Below are positions 12,297 through 18,768 of a stretch of 18,945 nt of DNA, piece after piece. Positions within the stretch are counted from its first letter, which is position 1; every line of letters begins with the position of its first letter. The position numbers were made by a program, and so were the translations under genes. The notes below the pieces were generated by a model that saw only the letters and a list, made by a program, of their open reading frames with translations, made no database searches and was not told where the DNA came from. The stretch is from an uncultured bacterium (GTDB lineage Bacteria; Hydrogenedentota; Hydrogenedentia; Hydrogenedentales; JAEUWI01): contig CAXBPH010000127.1 in NCBI GenBank assembly GCA_963977445.1, positions 1 through 18,945 on the forward strand. Reading direction: 5' to 3'.

Positions 12297-13400
12297 ATGA
12301 AACTTTTTATATGCTGGCTGGTTACGCTCCGTATTATCGCTCGTTATTTTCTCTACCGCCTGGGTATTGGAGGGCGTCCCAATTTCACCGACCGTTGGGC
12401 CGAAGTGCAGTTGGTATATCGCCAAGTTACCCGGATGGACAGCCGCATACGCTTGCGTGGTCTGGAGCATTTTCCCGGTTCCCACCCGGCCATTTATGCG
12501 GGCAACCATGTGAAGCTCGACGACCCCTTTTTCGTGTGCTATGCCGTGCAAGAGGGCAGCGGCTACACGATGCGCACCCGTTTTGTAATGCGCGATGATT
12601 TCTTTCTGGGATTTCCGTGGACCTGGATGCCCTTCCGCATGAATGAAGTGGCAGAAATGGGCGGGGCCTACCTCCTGTCCAAAGACGGCGTTACGCTGGC
12701 CCAGCTCAAGCCCCTCATCGATATGCTGCAGGAGCCGGACTCCTTTGTCATTTTCCCCAATGGGTCCCGAAGCCGCAGTGGTCTGTGGTTTGAGTATCGG
12801 GATGACATGGAAGGTCCGGGGTCCGTTTCTTTCTTCCTGGCCCAGTCCCAACGAAAAAAACCCGACGTGGCCGTGCCTGCGGTACCCGTCGGTCGAACCC
12901 ACAATCCGGTGACCAAGGTGAGTACGGTAATTCTGGGTGCCCCCTTGTATCTGGAGCCGGGTGCGCGCCGCGAGGCCCAACGGGAATTCGACGACGCCCT
13001 GGTGCTGGCCATTTCCGACCTGGTAGAGATACAGATGACCCACCTGGTGAGCGGATTACTTTATCTTCGCTGCCTCCATGGTCTGGGTGACACCGTCACG
13101 CGCGCTCAGTTGCTTGGTGAGGTCCTGGCGGTGATCGGCGCCTTGCCTTCCACGCGTTTCCTCGATCCTGGCCTGGATAAGGATGGCGAGCAGCAGCTGA
13201 CGGCGGTCCTGGCCTATCTGGCGCGTTACGACATGATTTCCATGGCGGGCGATGACGTGCACCTTCAGGTGGAGAAAATAGGGGTTGCCCCCGCGCCAGA
13301 CGTGCATTATCGCAGGGAAAACCCGATTAAATTCAGTGTAAACCAGATTCTGCACTTGCCCGATGTGGTTGCGGCGCTGGAGGTTGCGGTGCTCGGGTGA
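12297..13400 (+). CDS. Glycerolipid acyltransferase (PlsC/PlsB LPLAT family) with C-terminal extension
   Basis: Catalytic HX4D motif NHVKLDD, block III-like FPNGSRSRSG and block IV-like VPAVPVG. Confidence 0.85.
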   Translation: MKLFICWLVTLRIIARYFLYRLGIGGRPNFTDRWAEVQLVYRQVTRMDSRIRLRGLEHFPGSHPAIYAGNHVKLDDPFFVCYAVQEGSGYTMRTRFVMRDDFFLGFPWTWMPFRMNEVAEMGGAYLLSKDGVTLAQLKPLIDMLQEPDSFVIFPNGSRSRSGLWFEYRDDMEGPGSVSFFLAQSQRKKPDVAVPAVPVGRTHNPVTKVSTVILGAPLYLEPGARREAQREFDDALVLAISDLVEIQMTHLVSGLLYLRCLHGLGDTVTRAQLLGEVLAVIGALPSTRFLDPGLDKDGEQQLTAVLAYLARYDMISMAGDDVHLQVEKIGVAPAPDVHYRRENPIKFSVNQILHLPDVVAALEVAVLG

Positions 13401-13487
13401 CTTCATCGGGCGGACGGGACCTTCGTAAGGGGGAACTTTTTGCGACGGTCAGGTATGGATTCTTGGGGATCGCGTGTCCCCTGTGCT

Positions 13488-13589
13488 TTGACTTGCCTCA
13501 GGATCGAAGGGTAGACTGTAGATTATGGAATGCCCCACGAGAGCGGTCCTACAGCGGCACCGATCCCGTCGATTCTACGTTGGTATAAT
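13488..13589 (+). promoter_or_regulatory. Two candidate tandem promoters for the lipoprotein-resB-ccsA operon
   Basis: TTGACT (13488-13493), 18 bp, TAGACT (13512-13517); also a perfect extended -10 TGgTATAAT at 13581-13589. Confidence 0.55.
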
Positions 13590-13628: not shown

Positions 13629-15416
13629 ATGCGATCTCCTCGTTTTGCCCTCCTTCTCCTTCCTCTACTCTTAAATGCCTGCTCGGAACCGGCCTCCCGT
13701 CAGGAAATAACCGACATCCGCGAGCCGGGCGAGCTACGGCGGGAAGCGCCCCCCAAGCTTGATGTGCGTCAGCGTCTGGGTATGCGCTCCGACAGCGCCA
13801 TGGGCAGCAGTCAGGCGTCGGAAAGTGCCCTTGGTGGTATCACCTTCCACCATGATATGCCGGAAGGGTGGGAAAAAGTTCCCGAAACGGCCCTGCGCCA
13901 GGTGAATCTTCAGATGAAGGGTGCCCCGGATGTGGAGTGCTATTTCACCTTCCTGCCCGGTGGTGGTGGCGGTCTCGAGGCCAATCTCAACCGCTGGCGC
14001 ACCCAGATGGGTCAAGAGCCCTTGAGTGCCGACGCGGTTGCTGCGTTGCCGAAGAAGACGATATTTGGACAGCCGGCGACGTTTATCCTTATCGATGGCG
14101 ATTTTGTGGGTATGGGTACGGAACCCAAAACCGACTATCGGATGTATGGACTGATCTTGACCTACACCGACCCCAGTTCCAACGAGGACCAGGCGTTCTT
14201 CCTGAAAATGACCGGCCCCCGTGGGATGCTGGAAGACCAGGAAGCAAACTTTGAGCTGATAGCGTCCAGTCTGCATGCCGTTGCCCCCGGGGAAGAACAC
14301 TCCCACGGCGATGAAGCCGAGGCCCATAGCGCCAATGATGGGCATGATCATGGTGCGGAGGCTGAGGCCCATGGTGCCAACGATGGGCATGATCATGGTG
14401 CGGAGGCAAAAAGCATGGCGGCGGCACCCGAAGCGCCCGCTACACCGGTGGAAGCGGCGACCACGGGCTTTACGTGGACCCTGCCCGAGGGTTGGTCTGA
14501 AATTGCGCCGACCATGATGCGGCAGGCGAATCTGGTTGTCACAGGCCAGGACAATGTTGAATGTTACCTCACCGTATTGGGCGGCAATGGTGGTGGTCTG
14601 GAAATGAACATCAATCGCTGGCAGCAGCAGATGAGTCAAGAGTCCCTGAGCCCGGAAGCGATTGGTTCATTGCCGACCGCGCCGCTTCTGGGTGCTGACG
14701 CGACATTTGTCACCATAGACGGTACCTTTGGTGGCATGGGCGGGGCGCAGCAGAACGAAAACTTCCGTATGTATGGCTTGGCGCGTGTCGACGAATCACA
14801 GGCGTTTTTCGTGAAAATGACCGGTCCCCAGGAAGTGCTTGCGGCGCAGGAAGCCAATTTCCTTGCCTTCTGCGCATCCATCCAAGTGGGAGCGGTTGCG
14901 GCACCAGCGGTCGCCGCAGAAACGCCCGCCGCCGCACCTGCTGCCGGGGCCAATCCCCACGGTATGGCGGATCCGACGCCCAAAGGTGGCTTCAATCCAG
15001 AAGGTCTTTCCTGGACGGCACCCGAGGGTTGGCAGGATGGTGGCGAGCGCATGATGCGTGTAGTGACCTATGAAGTTGGAGAATCGGAATGTTATATCAC
15101 CAGCCTTTCGGGTACGGCAGGCGGTGTTAATGCCAATATAAACCGGTGGGTGGGCCAGATGGGCCAACCCGAGTTGGATGAGGCGGCGCTTGCGGCCCTT
15201 CCGCTCATCAAGATTCTTGATACGGAGGCCCCCATGGTCTTCGTAGCGGGTAGCTTCGTCGGTATGTCCGGCGCGGCGAACCCGGGCTATGCCTTACTTG
15301 GCACGGTGGTCCCGGTGGAAGATCAAACGATCTTCGTAAAGATGATAGGACCGGAGGCGGAAGTGAATGCTCAGAAAGAAAATTTTGTGGCTTTTTGCGC
15401 TTCCATTAAACCCTGA
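13629..15416 (+). CDS. Uncharacterised lipoprotein with three copies of a ~140-aa domain and a His-rich linker
   Basis: Lipobox LNAC (Cys18). The three repeats share PEGW...R...ECY...GG...N-x-NRW-xx-QM...G-x-F-x-GM...F-x-KM-x-GP...NF. Confidence 0.85.
   Translation: MRSPRFALLLLPLLLNACSEPASRQEITDIREPGELRREAPPKLDVRQRLGMRSDSAMGSSQASESALGGITFHHDMPEGWEKVPETALRQVNLQMKGAPDVECYFTFLPGGGGGLEANLNRWRTQMGQEPLSADAVAALPKKTIFGQPATFILIDGDFVGMGTEPKTDYRMYGLILTYTDPSSNEDQAFFLKMTGPRGMLEDQEANFELIASSLHAVAPGEEHSHGDEAEAHSANDGHDHGAEAEAHGANDGHDHGAEAKSMAAAPEAPATPVEAATTGFTWTLPEGWSEIAPTMMRQANLVVTGQDNVECYLTVLGGNGGGLEMNINRWQQQMSQESLSPEAIGSLPTAPLLGADATFVTIDGTFGGMGGAQQNENFRMYGLARVDESQAFFVKMTGPQEVLAAQEANFLAFCASIQVGAVAAPAVAAETPAAAPAAGANPHGMADPTPKGGFNPEGLSWTAPEGWQDGGERMMRVVTYEVGESECYITSLSGTAGGVNANINRWVGQMGQPELDEAALAALPLIKILDTEAPMVFVAGSFVGMSGAANPGYALLGTVVPVEDQTIFVKMIGPEAEVNAQKENFVAFCASIKP
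14319..14408 (+). repeat. 45-bp tandem duplication encoding EAH(S/G)ANDGHDHGAEA twice
   Basis: Two near-identical in-frame 45-nt units start at 14319 and 14364. Confidence 0.9.
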
Positions 15417-15482
15417 TACGTGGGACGCGGACCGGGGTAATGGTTTGCGAGAGCACACACCAATCCAGATCGGAAATTTGTT

Positions 15483-16628
15483 TTGAAAAAGCTATTTAAC
15501 TTCTTTGCCTCCTATGGTTTTGCGGTCGTCATATTGATCTTATTGACTATCCTGACCCTGTTTGGCACCTTGGAGCAGGCCAGCAGCAGTCTCTTTGATG
15601 TGCAAAACAAGTACTTCAATTCCTTCTTCCTGACTCATGACCTATTCGGGATTCCCATCCCGCTGCCGGGCGTCTACCTGCTTTCGAGCTTGTTGTTTGT
15701 CAATCTGGTCTGCGGCGCGCTGATACGTGTGCGTAAAGAGTGGAAAAAGCCGGGGATGTTGATTGCCCACTGTGGCATCTTGTATATGCTCGTGGCGGGC
15801 TTTGTGACCTACCATTTTTCCACGTCCGGCCAGATGACGCTCTATCCTGAAGAGCGTTCTGATCGGTATCAGAGTTATTATGAGTGGGAGATTGAAATCG
15901 CGCGCCTGGAGGATGGTCTCTATGGAACGCGTTGGATTATTCCGGGGGAAGCCTTCGGCGATATGAAGGTGGAAGATACCCGGGAGTTCTTCCAGCCCGA
16001 TTTGCCATTCACGCTGATGTTGGAGAACTTCCTACCCAACGCTACGCCCCAGCCCACGCCCGGTGATGACGGGGCAGAGGGCTTTACCCTGGTGGCCAAG
16101 CCCCCGGAAATGGAAGCGGCCCAGAATGCGGCCGGCGTGTATGCGCTGGTGTTGGCGAAAGACAAGAAGGAAGTCCAGACAGGTTTTCTCTGGGGCTTCT
16201 CGATTTCTCCCTGGGTGATAACGGTCGACGGCGTGGATTATGCCATTGAATTACGTCATCGCAACTGGGAACTGCCCTTCACCATTACGTTGGACGAGTT
16301 CATCCGCGACTTGCATGCACGGACCTCTATGGCGAGCAATTTTGAGAGTGTAGTAACCAAGACGGAAGGGGGCGAGCCAGACCGGAAAATCAATATCCGG
16401 ATGAATGAGCCACTCCGTCACAAAGGGTATACCCTCTTCCAGTCCGGCTGGGGCCCCCAGAATGCGGGACCCGATACCAAACTGTTCTCGACCTTTTCGG
16501 TGGTGAACAATCCGGCCGACCAATGGCCGCTCTACTCGTGTATCGTCATTGCCGTGGGTCTGTCGATCCACTTCTTACAAAAATTATTCAGCTATCTTCG
16601 CGCTGAAAACCGGAGGCGTGCCTCATGA
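15483..16628 (+). CDS. resB: Cytochrome c biogenesis protein, ResB/CcsB-like
   Basis: Three N-terminal TMs (GTLEQ; conserved TM His in GMLIAHCG), then LPFTITLDEF, SNFESVV, IRMNEPLRHKGYTLFQSGW and VVNNP plus a C-terminal TM. Confidence 0.85.
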   Translation: MKKLFNFFASYGFAVVILILLTILTLFGTLEQASSSLFDVQNKYFNSFFLTHDLFGIPIPLPGVYLLSSLLFVNLVCGALIRVRKEWKKPGMLIAHCGILYMLVAGFVTYHFSTSGQMTLYPEERSDRYQSYYEWEIEIARLEDGLYGTRWIIPGEAFGDMKVEDTREFFQPDLPFTLMLENFLPNATPQPTPGDDGAEGFTLVAKPPEMEAAQNAAGVYALVLAKDKKEVQTGFLWGFSISPWVITVDGVDYAIELRHRNWELPFTITLDEFIRDLHARTSMASNFESVVTKTEGGEPDRKINIRMNEPLRHKGYTLFQSGWGPQNAGPDTKLFSTFSVVNNPADQWPLYSCIVIAVGLSIHFLQKLFSYLRAENRRRAS

Positions 16629-18601
16629 GAATTTCATCCGTATTTCGCCCTGTCTTACTCGTCGCATTGACGACGTTGCTTCTGCCTGCGGTTTCCCACA
16701 GTGCTGAGCGGGAACCCTGGAGCAAAGAAATAATCGATCTCTTTGCGACGATGCCCGTGCAGGATGGTGGTCGCATCAAGCCCTTCGATACCTATGCGCA
16801 GTTTACGATGCTCCAGTTGAATGGCAAACGGTCTTTCACGACCGAGCCGGCCGACGGGAGCAAGGGTGAGCGGCTGAAGCCGGTTGCCTGGATGCTTGAT
16901 GCGATTTTCTATCCGGAAATTGCGTCGGACTACAAGCACTTTATCGTGGACAACTACGACGTAATTGCGGCCATGGGGGTGCAGGCTCACGACAAGCGCC
17001 GCAGCCGGTATTCCTACAACGAGTTGGAGCCGGGGGTGGAGAAGTTGATGGCGTTGGCGCAGGAATACAACGCGGTCGACCCGAAGAAACGGGATCTGGT
17101 GCAGCAGGGTGTGCTCGACCTGACGAACAACGTATTCTTGTTTACCCAAATCATCCATTTTATGGATTTCGCGGAAGAACGTTTCACGGTGGAGGGCGAC
17201 ACGGCCCTGGCCAAGGCTTTTCCTGAGGCCGAAGGCGTGTCTATGAGCGTGACGCTGGAGCGGGCCATGAAGGTGCTGGCTGCGCTGCGGGGCAACCCCG
17301 ACAATCTTAGTGCGGATGAAGTGAATGCCGTGGTTATGGCATTCAGCACGCTGCTGGAAGACCTGGAACGTCCTGCCATGCGGGCCCAGGCCATTGCCTT
17401 GTTCCCCCCTTCCGAAGCGGACGTGGAAGAATGGCAGACACCGGCCGACGTCATGGCGGCTGCGGTTGATGAAGTGCACGGTGCACCGATTTCACTTTCG
17501 ATGCTCGGCGCCCTGGAAAAACTGCCAGCGTTGAAAGGGGATCGTCCGGCATTCACCGAGGCTTTGAACACCTTGCACAACGAAACCGTCGCCCTCGCGA
17601 AGGAACGTGGTGAATACAGCAAGATATCGCTGGAAGTGCACTATTACAAAGGGCAGTACATTTTCTATAGCCAGTGGCTCTTTGTGTTGAGCTTTCTCGT
17701 GGTGGCTATCAGTTGGCTGACGCCCCGGTCCAAGTGGATTCACTATGCGACACCTGTTGCGGTGCTGTTGCCCACCATTCTGCTGATTATCGGCATCACC
17801 CTCCGTTGCATCATTCGCGACAGGCCGCCCATCTCAACGCTGTATGAGACGATATTGTTTATTACGGCGACGGCGGTGCTGGTTTCACTCTTCATTGAGT
17901 ATGTTAATCGTCAACGTGTTGCCGTGGCCATGGCGTCTTTTCTGGGCATGGTGGGTATGTTTATCGCCTATCGCTATGAAGTGAAAGAGGGCGTGGACAC
18001 CATGCCGAGTCTGGTGGCGGTGCTTGATACGAATTTCTGGTTGGCGACCCACGTGACCATCATCAACATCGGCTATGCCGCGGGTATGCTGGCGGGCGCG
18101 ATTGCCCACGTCTATATTTTCAGCCGCCTGTTGAACTTCAAAAAAGACAACAAAGAATATTACCGCAGCCTCAATCGGATGGTCTATGGCATCTTGTGCT
18201 TTGGCCTGCTTTTCTCGACCGTCGGCACCATTCTGGGCGGCATCTGGGCCAACGACAGTTGGGGCCGTTTCTGGGGCTGGGATCCGAAAGAGAATGGCGC
18301 ACTGATGATTGTGTTGTGGAGTCTGGTTATCCTCCATGCCAAGATGGGGCGCTTCATCAAGGAATTGGGCATCTCTCAGGGCGCTATCGTCCTTGCGATG
18401 ATTGTGGCCTTTTCCTGGTGGGGTGTGAATCAACTCGGTGTGGGTCTTCACAGCTACGGGTTCACCAGTGGCATTATGAATGCCTTGGTGGTCTATTGGG
18501 GATTTGAACTGCTCGTGATTGCTCTGGGGGCGCTGGTTTGGCTGCGCGACCGGAATGATCGGGTAGGGACCCAAGGTGGAAAAGAAGTAACGGCTTCCTG
18601 A
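16625..18601 (+). CDS. ccsA: Cytochrome c biogenesis protein CcsA/ResC (System II heme lyase) with a large N-terminal periplasmic domain
   Basis: WWD motif GGIWANDSWGRFWGWDPKE, His motifs WLATHVT, VILHAK and GLHSYG, plus PPISTLYE and N-terminal QDGGRIKPFDT. ATGA overlap with resB. Confidence 0.93.
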   Translation: MRISSVFRPVLLVALTTLLLPAVSHSAEREPWSKEIIDLFATMPVQDGGRIKPFDTYAQFTMLQLNGKRSFTTEPADGSKGERLKPVAWMLDAIFYPEIASDYKHFIVDNYDVIAAMGVQAHDKRRSRYSYNELEPGVEKLMALAQEYNAVDPKKRDLVQQGVLDLTNNVFLFTQIIHFMDFAEERFTVEGDTALAKAFPEAEGVSMSVTLERAMKVLAALRGNPDNLSADEVNAVVMAFSTLLEDLERPAMRAQAIALFPPSEADVEEWQTPADVMAAAVDEVHGAPISLSMLGALEKLPALKGDRPAFTEALNTLHNETVALAKERGEYSKISLEVHYYKGQYIFYSQWLFVLSFLVVAISWLTPRSKWIHYATPVAVLLPTILLIIGITLRCIIRDRPPISTLYETILFITATAVLVSLFIEYVNRQRVAVAMASFLGMVGMFIAYRYEVKEGVDTMPSLVAVLDTNFWLATHVTIINIGYAAGMLAGAIAHVYIFSRLLNFKKDNKEYYRSLNRMVYGILCFGLLFSTVGTILGGIWANDSWGRFWGWDPKENGALMIVLWSLVILHAKMGRFIKELGISQGAIVLAMIVAFSWWGVNQLGVGLHSYGFTSGIMNALVVYWGFELLVIALGALVWLRDRNDRVGTQGGKEVTAS

Positions 18602-18623
18602 ATTAAGCCGTAACGATATATAG

Positions 18624-18670
18624 AACGGGCGGAAACGTGTAACTGCGTTTCCGCCCGTTTCGTTGTTTTT
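18624..18670 (+). terminator. Intrinsic terminator after ccsA
   Basis: 14-bp stem AACGGGCGGAAACG/CGTTTCCGCCCGTT followed by TCGTTGTTTTT. Confidence 0.85.
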
Positions 18671-18768
18671 GGGGGCAGGAAGACCGGCGTGGGTGTTCCG
18701 TTGAGTTTCACTTACCCTCGGGGGGACGGCCCCGGCGGTCGCCATCGACGTTTCATGCAGGACGACTT

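Follow-up and report, generated by a model that had tools for sequence, protein, structure and literature searches.

A conserved lipoprotein with predicted PsbP-fold domains is a probable accessory factor of a split CcsBA-type cytochrome c synthase

To our knowledge, descriptions of System II of cytochrome c maturation name CcsB, CcsA and a thiol-reduction branch as all that it needs. In an 18,945-nt stretch of DNA from an uncultured member of the Hydrogenedentota (contig CAXBPH010000127.1 of assembly GCA_963977445.1; this whole stretch is called the window hereafter), the genes for the two synthase proteins, resB (also ccsB) and ccsA, are preceded by a gene for a lipoprotein with three repeated domains. 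This arrangement raises the question whether the lipoprotein is part of the maturation machinery, and, if so, what it does there. A preliminary description of the window had proposed it as a new System II component and had named as a test the tendency of its homologues to lie beside ccsBA genes. We found that the lipoprotein is very probably a dedicated accessory factor of a split CcsBA-type synthase, because synteny, tight spacing, exclusive gene sharing, phylum spread and co-divergence all tie it functionally to System II. A widespread, tightly linked and unannotated third gene would revise the picture of System II for whole phyla.

Related loci were sought in species-representative genomes with a 20-sequence alignment and two strict motifs, and all locus counts rest on the best 80 of at least 587 confirmed matches, which were 31–70% identical to the query. 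The neighbourhood could be judged in 77 of these 80 loci, the other 3 ending within 45 nt of the lipoprotein gene. In 75 of the 77, resB followed the lipoprotein gene directly and on the same strand, and in one more (L013) resB-ccsA lay directly upstream of it. Adjacency was therefore found in 76 of 77 loci (75 with the lipoprotein gene upstream of resB, 1 with it downstream of ccsA), which is the conserved co-location and co-orientation expected of a System II component and bears out the predicted bias toward ccsBA. The remaining locus (L010) contained neither gene. Among loci long enough to show ccsA, it was present in 70 of 71. Spacing was tight as well. The gap between lipoprotein gene and resB had a median of 10 nt and did not exceed 100 nt in 61 of 62 loci, with an overlap in 12; in the window it is 66 nt from stop to start. 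Similarly, the median gap between resB and ccsA was −4 nt, and the window ccsA ATG is overlapped by 4 nt of the resB stop. Two Planctomycetota-type loci carried ResB and CcsA in a single open reading frame (ORF), with the lipoprotein gene still in front (L027, 9017–12175; L030, 8540–12019); these are natural fusions of the split pair. When all ORFs of the loci were clustered, only the lipoprotein, ResB and CcsA were widely shared, and the next genuine cluster occurred in 17 loci; the other large clusters were frame or strand shadows of the three genes, as judged from their window members. According to their record labels, which may be wrong for metagenome-assembled genomes (MAGs), the 80 loci comprised 40 from Planctomycetota, 21 from Hydrogenedentota, 3 from Verrucomicrobia, 4 labelled Nitrospir- and 8 unclassified, besides one each from Lentisphaeria, Sumerlaeota, the “FCB group” and Pseudohongiellaceae. 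The three-part variant appears to be characteristic of Planctomycetota, Hydrogenedentota, Verrucomicrobia and groups close to them.

The lipoprotein-synthase module also diverges as a unit, since CcsA and lipoprotein distances correlated with r = 0.74 over 1953 pairs. Two MAGs held two loci of the family each, namely L019 with L026 (BTVY01) and L004 with L024 (JAHDWY01). L019 and L026 were both full trios, at tree distances of 1.68 for CcsA and 1.54 for the lipoprotein, and orthologues across MAGs were close (0.39 for CcsA and 0.25 for the lipoprotein); the L004 contig ended 267 nt past the lipoprotein gene, inside resB. One locus of each pair (L004 and L019) adjoined a multihaem cytochrome cluster and its partner did not.

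The two downstream genes encode what looks, from residue conservation and collinearity with a solved enzyme, like an intact and functional synthase. The resB product matched PF05140 in Pfam with 78.1 bits against a cut-off of 24.6 (E = 8.1e-22) and had four hydrophobic segments when read by eye, with a periplasmic domain at about amino acids (aa) 113–346. Residues H96, N308, P310, R312 and Q320 were invariant in 63 sequences. The protein thus combines PF05140, a transmembrane (TM) histidine and the periplasmic (V/M)NxP motif by which ResB/CcsB is defined in the consulted part of PMC4222556, and it is assigned to this family on sequence features. CcsA comprises an N-terminal anchor, a helical periplasmic domain and a TM/WWD core; it matched PF01578 at aa 404–607 with 81.5 bits against a cut-off of 29.9. 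Its WWD haem-handling motif agreed with the canonical CcsA motif as given in PMC4222556 (same part), the exceptions to invariance among the 63 sequences being N543, present in at least 90%, and D544, which varied. H476 and H571 were invariant and H609 was present in at least 90% of these sequences. With PF01578, the WWD motif, two periplasmic histidines and one TM histidine, the protein has the features expected of CcsA/ResC; it did not reach the cut-off of the NCBIfam CcsB equivalog TIGR03144 (122.9 against 187.6 bits).

The helical periplasmic N-domain of CcsA was considered as a novel feature, and this was rejected, as fold and sequence collinearity showed that it corresponds to periplasmic domain 2 (PD2) of fused CcsBA. 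Its sole significant fold match in the PDB was Helicobacter hepaticus CcsBA (7s9y, E = 1.6e-4; 7s9z, E = 6.5e-3), with modest TM-scores of 0.36–0.38, and a structure search of the Atlas with this domain also found clusters of ResB-only and of fused CcsBA proteins. At the sequence level, ResB 258–350 matched residues 225–310 of 7s9y and CcsA 343–637 matched residues 636–921. In fused CcsBA, two periplasmic domains are separated by two TM helices, according to the passages used of PMC10663686. Because the fold match, the collinear sequence matches and this domain layout agree, we conclude that the window ResB and CcsA are the two parts of a CcsBA divided between the two TM helices that lie between PD1 and PD2. 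The enzyme is therefore like the CcsBA/ResB-ResC of H. hepaticus (7S9Y, 7S9Z) in Pfam families, WWD motif, TM and periplasmic histidines and collinearity, and differs from it in being split into two genes with a conserved lipoprotein gene in front. The start of the CcsA N-domain carried a strongly conserved PVQDGGR-x-KP motif, of which Q46, G49, R50 and P53 were invariant in the 63 sequences.

We then considered the lipoprotein itself (Table 1). Its N-terminus, MRSPRFALLLLPLLLNAC, contains a signal peptide with a lipobox whose Cys is residue 18, which is what is expected of a bacterial lipoprotein, and a simple rule recognized a lipobox-like Cys and signal peptide in 223 of 245 database homologues. 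The three repeats that the preliminary description had claimed are in frame and correspond to aa 71–216, 281–419 and 460–595; the domain hidden Markov models (HMMs) built here set them at aa 73–216, 281–419 and 460–594. They are real repeats, because their pairwise BLASTP E-values (5e-48, 1e-29 and 2e-36, at 48%, 37% and 42% identity) are far beyond chance. Every motif named for them beforehand was present at its place, including PEGW (aa 78, 286 and 465), ECY (aa 103, 311 and 487), NRW (aa 121, 329 and 505) and KM.GP (aa 193, 396 and 571), and FCASI was indeed restricted to repeats 2 and 3 (aa 414 and 589). The protein has six cysteines (18, 104, 312, 415, 488 and 590) and contains no CxxC, CxxCH or CxxCK.

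Table 1. Positions of the lipoprotein-synthase unit, its domains and its candidate signals in the window.
Feature	Position	Strand	Remarks
Lipoprotein gene	13629..15416	+	ATG start, 595 aa; signal peptide-tether-A-linker-A-linker-B
Signal peptide and lipobox LLNAC, Cys18	13629..13682	+	from sequence
Tether, aa 19-72	13683..13844	+	short conserved motifs QEITDIR, QRLGM
Predicted PsbP-fold domain 1, A-type, aa 73-216	13845..14276	+	domA HMM 164.8 bits; ECY Cys, no second Cys
Linker 1, His/Asp-rich	14277..14468	+	45-nt tandem repeat at 14319-14407
Predicted PsbP-fold domain 2, A-type, aa 281-419	14469..14885	+	domA HMM 192.8 bits; Cys312, Cys415
Linker 2, Ala/Pro-rich	14886..15005	+	predicted disordered; predicted local distance difference test (pLDDT) <50 at model residues 154-175
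Predicted PsbP-fold domain 3, B-type, aa 460-595	15006..15413	+	domB HMM 186.0 bits; Cys488, Cys590
resB/ccsB	15483..16628	+	TTG start, 381 aa; PF05140
ccsA	16625..18601	+	ATG start, 658 aa; PF01578
CcsA helical periplasmic N-domain, aa 27-345	16703..17659	+	model pLDDT 95.3
WWD haem-handling motif, CcsA aa 541-560, WANDSWGRFWGWDPKENGAL	18245..18304	+	18/20 positions invariant, 63 sequences
Intrinsic terminator	18623..18670	+	17-bp stem with T-run at 18623-18660, 4-nt loop; strong
Sigma-70-like promoter candidate	13488..13517	+	TTGACT-18-TAGACT; consensus match only, 9/12 positions
Extended -10-like TGgTATAAT	13581..13589	+	40 nt 5' of start codon; read by eye, unscored

The tether between lipid anchor and first domain was variable except for two short motifs, QEIT-x-x-R directly after the lipobox Cys and (E/Q)R(L/F)G(M). 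Of the 232 homologues whose tether could be recognised, 59 contained the pattern I[TSN][EDQ].R and 137 contained xR[FLMY]G, and these conserved motifs may be docking peptides. The tandem repeat in linker 1 consists of 2 copies with 93% matches and encodes EAEAH-x-ANDGHDHGA. Across the family, His made up 5.8% of the linkers versus 0.8% of the domains, and at least four His outside the domains were found in 116 of 325 proteins. Linker 1 also weakly resembled the His-rich loop of ZnuA (1pq4, E = 0.076), and this His/Asp-rich segment may be a binding site for metal or haem iron.

Searches of Pfam, NCBIfam and PDB sequences with the lipoprotein gave nothing significant. In particular, Pfam PsbP (PF01789), PsbP_2 (PF18933) and DcrB (PF08786) had no match at E of at most 1 in the window protein or in 91 alignment members, of which 23 each showed weak, short, below-cut-off matches to NPCBM_assoc and to PKD_6. 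The outcome that the preliminary description had regarded as fatal to its proposal, membership of a characterised family with an unrelated function, did not arise, as no sequence family was matched. A structure model was built with AlphaFold2 for window domains 2 and 3 on the 91-sequence alignment; its mean pLDDT was 90.6 and its linker was disordered. Foldseek found 19 PDB matches at E of at most 0.001, almost all of the PsbP/Mog1/DUF1795 fold, among them BT_1490, cyanobacterial and plant PsbP, LpqN, Tsi3 and Apa (E = 1.7e-5 to 1e-3 in the best rows). Foldseek probability was 1.00 for PsbP, LpqN, Tsi3 and Apa and 0.99 for DcrB (E = 2.1e-2), with target TM-scores of 0.4–0.57 and identities of 8–17%; the Atlas structure search, taken as a lead, gave 0.89 for DcrB and 0.88 for PsbP. 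Judged by this model, the domains have the PsbP/DcrB/LpqN fold, an antiparallel beta-sheet sandwiched by helices, in agreement with an earlier hint drawn from the sequence motifs, and they are a new sequence family within the PsbP/Mog1/DUF1795 fold.

This family is large. A profile search covering 1.84 billion cluster representatives (50% identity clusters) matched 10,936 proteins at E of at most 1e-3, 8,406 at 1e-10 and 2,315 at 1e-30, and the only existing name for family members was “hypothetical protein”, from Hydrogenedentes and Planctomycetota MAGs. With 10,936 cluster representatives and no Pfam or NCBIfam model, it deserves a family model and a name. The domains fall into an N-terminal subtype A and a C-terminal subtype B, and the 80 related loci plus the window (n = 81) had the architectures AB (62), AA (10), B (5), AAB (2) and A (2). 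The window protein with its three domains thus has a rare architecture, and one domain can be enough, single-domain forms being present in 7 of 81 loci; a word-index search with one domain gave one short homologue only. No form longer than 1042 aa was found, in a search that is itself weak evidence on this point.

Conservation of residues was assessed in 675 domains, which came from 325 proteins. Near-invariant positions, each kept in 646–672 domains, were the Pro and Trp of PxGW, one Arg, a GG pair, N-x-(N)-R-W-x-x-Q and K-x-x-G-P; in window numbering, R298, R330, K396, W289 and W331 were each found in 655–672. Glu-Cys-Tyr and Met370 were present in 86–90% of the domains. The ECY Cys was found in 604, and the other 71 had Val, Ala, Met or Thr in its place; this Cys was missing from every domain in 14 of the 325 proteins, and four such Cys-less lipoproteins (L055, L058, L063 and L079) still precede resB-ccsA. 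Because these 14 homologues lack the Cys altogether, Cys-centred mechanisms are weakened, and a universal Cys-dependent mechanism was rejected. The second Cys, at the FCASI position, occurred in 348 domains, in 329 of them together with the first, and was absent from 327 including window domain 1; both were absent from 52. Such co-occurrence is better explained by an optional disulfide than by a catalytic pair.

What, then, might such an accessory factor do? We infer, tentatively and with slightly less than even confidence, that it is a substrate-side adaptor or holdase for apocytochromes, its docking, its ligand and its effect on cytochrome yield included. The lipoprotein would be held at the membrane beside the synthase by its lipid anchor and flexible tether, and the conserved surface of each domain would hold a stretch of unfolded, Sec-exported apocytochrome. 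This surface would be formed by PxGW, the Arg, GG-x-x-x-N-x-N-R-W-x-x-Q on a helix and K-M-x-G-P, usually joined by Glu-Cys-Tyr on the central strand. Each domain might then present CXXCH segments to the external haem site formed by the WWD motif and the periplasmic histidines (P-His), and one to three domains on flexible linkers would offer several holding sites, which could help with the many multihaem cytochromes that these organisms have.

Four observations make us favour the adaptor over other functions. First, the lipoprotein can remain beside cytochrome genes where no synthase is encoded: in L010 it closes a multihaem cytochrome cluster without resB-ccsA and is followed by convergent unrelated genes (NuoF-like and superoxide dismutase). 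Second, paralogous trios adjoin particular cytochrome clusters. Third, the number of identical binding modules varies from one to three. Finally, the residues of the presumed conserved surface are polar and aromatic, with no fixed metal ligand among them. Cytochrome genes close by give a further hint at the substrate side, with ORFs of at least four CxxCH in the fetched flanks of 23 of 80 loci, a count that has no genomic background control. Several points weigh against this interpretation. Helicobacter fused CcsBA works in E. coli without such a lipoprotein, and the lipoprotein is therefore not intrinsically required. The domain has no invariant His, and each of its near-conserved residues Cys, Tyr and Met is lacking from 10–14% of domains, which leaves the ligand site ill-defined; haem might be the ligand instead of apocytochrome. 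The sampled loci are the best 80 of at least 587 confirmed matches in a far larger family (10,936 clusters) and were found by two strict motifs. Co-folding of CcsA 27–640, ResB 113–346 and lipoprotein domain B, run with no controls, tether or A domains, scored 0.00 against a mark of 0.32 and speaks neither for binding nor against it.

The main rival is a haem-side chaperone, a System II analogue of CcmE whose domains would take, buffer or protect the haem exported by the synthase; we consider it unlikely, if worth serious attention. The synteny fits it equally, and the residue conservation described above can be read in its terms: the near-invariant Arg and Lys would bind propionates, the Trp would stack on the porphyrin, and the Cys, Tyr or Met found in most domains would serve as a transient axial ligand, Tyr being the axial ligand that CcmE uses. 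The His enrichment of the linkers might help. However, none of these candidate axial ligands is invariant, and the Cys-less lipoproteins precede resB-ccsA all the same. In L010 the lipoprotein was kept with cytochromes and not with a haem exporter. Besides, haem attachment in CcsBA takes place at the external WWD site and involves no soluble carrier, according to the passages used of PMC10663686.

System I offers possible functional analogues for both ligands. CcmE and CcmH/CcmI are likewise membrane-anchored and periplasmic and carry haem (CcmE) or hold apocytochrome (CcmH/CcmI), whereas their folds and sequences are unrelated to those of the lipoprotein. A System II equivalent of CcmE, CcmH or CcmI is not described in the parts consulted of PMC4222556 and PMC10663686. 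A bolder version of our reading, which seems to us rather doubtful, is a three-component System II in the Planctomycetes-Verrucomicrobia-Chlamydiae (PVC) group and Hydrogenedentota, in which the lipoprotein would do the job of CcmE or of CcmH/I, holding haem or apocytochrome at the membrane, possibly via a transient bond to the strand Cys, and feeding successive CXXCH sites. If true, it would explain how a minimal pathway matures very large multihaem cytochromes, and paralogous trios would each serve particular cytochrome clusters as a maturation line specific to their substrates.

Alternatively, the lipoprotein could be a structural extrinsic subunit or assembly factor sitting on PD1 and PD2, which stabilises or gates the chamber and binds neither haem nor apocytochrome. 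We regard this as improbable. The fold family speaks for it, as it also does for the adaptor: several Foldseek matches are peripheral partners of membrane complexes, such as PsbP in photosystem II, LpqN, and one chain of the NDH-PSI supercomplex. CyanoP is a lipoprotein that serves as an assembly factor, and LpqN is reported to bind MmpL exporters at their periplasmic domains. PsbP/CyanoP (PF01789) shares with the window domains the alpha-beta sandwich (Foldseek probability 1.00, E = 5e-5 to 2e-3, target TM-score about 0.5) and a peripheral position on the outer face of an energy-transducing membrane, and CyanoP is lipid-anchored as well; it differs in sequence (8–17% identity, no Pfam PsbP match in the window protein), in partner genes and in that the window domains are in tandem. 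Similarly, LpqN of M. tuberculosis (6E5D) and DcrB/DUF1795 (6E8A) are cell-envelope lipoproteins of the same fold, with which the window protein shares neither sequence-family membership nor operon partners nor conserved residues. The lipid anchor, the tether with its short conserved motifs and the co-divergence with CcsA also suit a structural subunit. On the other hand, the conserved polar and aromatic residues, which are the same in A and B domains, suggest a ligand site, a variable copy number is odd for a fixed structural part, and L010 has no synthase to which such a part could belong.

A periplasmic function unrelated to cytochromes, with nothing shared except the operon, is distinctly improbable. 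It could be metal binding through the His/Asp linkers, for which the tandem repeat in linker 1 and its weak resemblance to the ZnuA loop would speak, or an envelope role like that of DcrB or LpqN, given that the fold relatives are diverse in role. Such a function can hardly explain adjacency in 76 of 77 loci over several phyla at gaps of a few nt, and the His-rich segments lie outside the conserved domains, with the four or more His found in little over a third of the proteins.

The cysteines suggest another assignment, to the thiol-redox branch, in which the pair formed by ECY and FCxS would reduce or protect apocytochrome cysteines and replace ResA/CcsX. ResA/CcsX and CcdA/DsbD are periplasmic System II accessory factors often encoded beside resBC, and in this they resemble the lipoprotein. 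The preliminary description had stated that the unit has no thioredoxin CxxC gene, and this was confirmed: Pfam scans of the three unit proteins and 17 other window ORFs found no thioredoxin or CcdA/DsbD family. That absence, together with the company that the second Cys mostly keeps with the first (329 of 348 domains), is compatible with a redox role. Unlike ResA/CcsX and CcdA/DsbD, however, the lipoprotein has neither CxxC nor a thioredoxin fold; the second Cys is missing from nearly half of the domains including window domain 1, both are missing from some, and the optional structural disulfide fits better, which makes this assignment very improbable. Finally, it is hard to believe that the lipoprotein is itself the substrate of a dedicated synthase that attaches haem to the single conserved ECY Cys of each domain, in the way that unusual haem motifs are served by dedicated CcsA paralogues, and dedicated lyase genes usually lie beside the substrate gene (NrfI in Wolinella, for example), since it has no CxxCH, CxxCK or conserved His ligand, the Cys is replaced in 71 domains and absent from 14 whole proteins, and the WWD motif is canonical.

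In full-text literature searches, with subscription-only papers and supplements outside their scope, no PsbP-fold lipoprotein was described for System II. The word “lipoprotein” had no occurrence in the consulted portions of PMC4222556 and of PMC10663686, a structural review from 2023, and the passages of PMC3495685 on ResB and cytochrome c biogenesis described no such protein. Whether the periplasmic domains of the synthase cap the active site, bind substrate or take part in its release is left undecided in PMC10663686, in the part used here. The lipoprotein offers a way into the question how substrates arrive at the active site of CcsBA. Planctomycetota, Verrucomicrobia and Hydrogenedentota rely strongly on multihaem cytochromes, and the lipoprotein is a candidate addition for the heterologous expression of such proteins.

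With regard to cytochrome genes in the flanks, a tetrahaem ORF ended just upstream of the lipoprotein gene in 8 loci, and the two that were scanned both matched Cytochrome_C554. A recurring Hydrogenedentota cluster was located directly upstream of the lipoprotein gene in L002, L004, L019, L059 and L010. In L002 it consisted of a 5-haem NapC/NirT-like protein, a 6-haem protein, a protein of about 555 aa without Pfam match, a 14-haem protein and a tetrahaem c554-like protein. L010 had the 14-haem ORF and the protein of about 555 aa, no tetrahaem ORF beside the lipoprotein gene, and different other cytochrome ORFs. Possibly, this cluster is a module for electron transfer that comes with maturation genes of its own. 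In the window, CxxCH was absent from every ORF of at least 80 aa.

The preliminary description had also drawn promoters, lipoprotein gene, resB, ccsA and terminator as one compact unit. Its genes, compactness and terminator stand, with the lipoprotein gene at the head of a predicted three-gene operon; the promoters are less secure, as the whole region contained 6 promoter-like sites versus 3.4 ± 1.8 in shuffles. An Rfam scan of the window gave no match. The flanking genes were of a chromosomal housekeeping and envelope type (FtsK, alanine racemase, MurJ, a Wzy-like ligase, PagL and an acyltransferase). A 63-aa ORF without Pfam match (13397–13588, + strand) overlapped the end of the acyltransferase gene and occupied most of the intergenic region 5' of the lipoprotein gene, and a terminator-like hairpin was located inside it (13465–13481). 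Long antisense or out-of-frame ORFs were found over the three genes at 17885–18745 (− strand), 13734–14639 (− strand) and 18196–18507 (+ strand). Comparable shadow ORFs from as many as 78 loci fell into their clusters, and the antisense and out-of-frame ORFs of the window most likely do not code for protein but shadow conserved, GC-rich genes.

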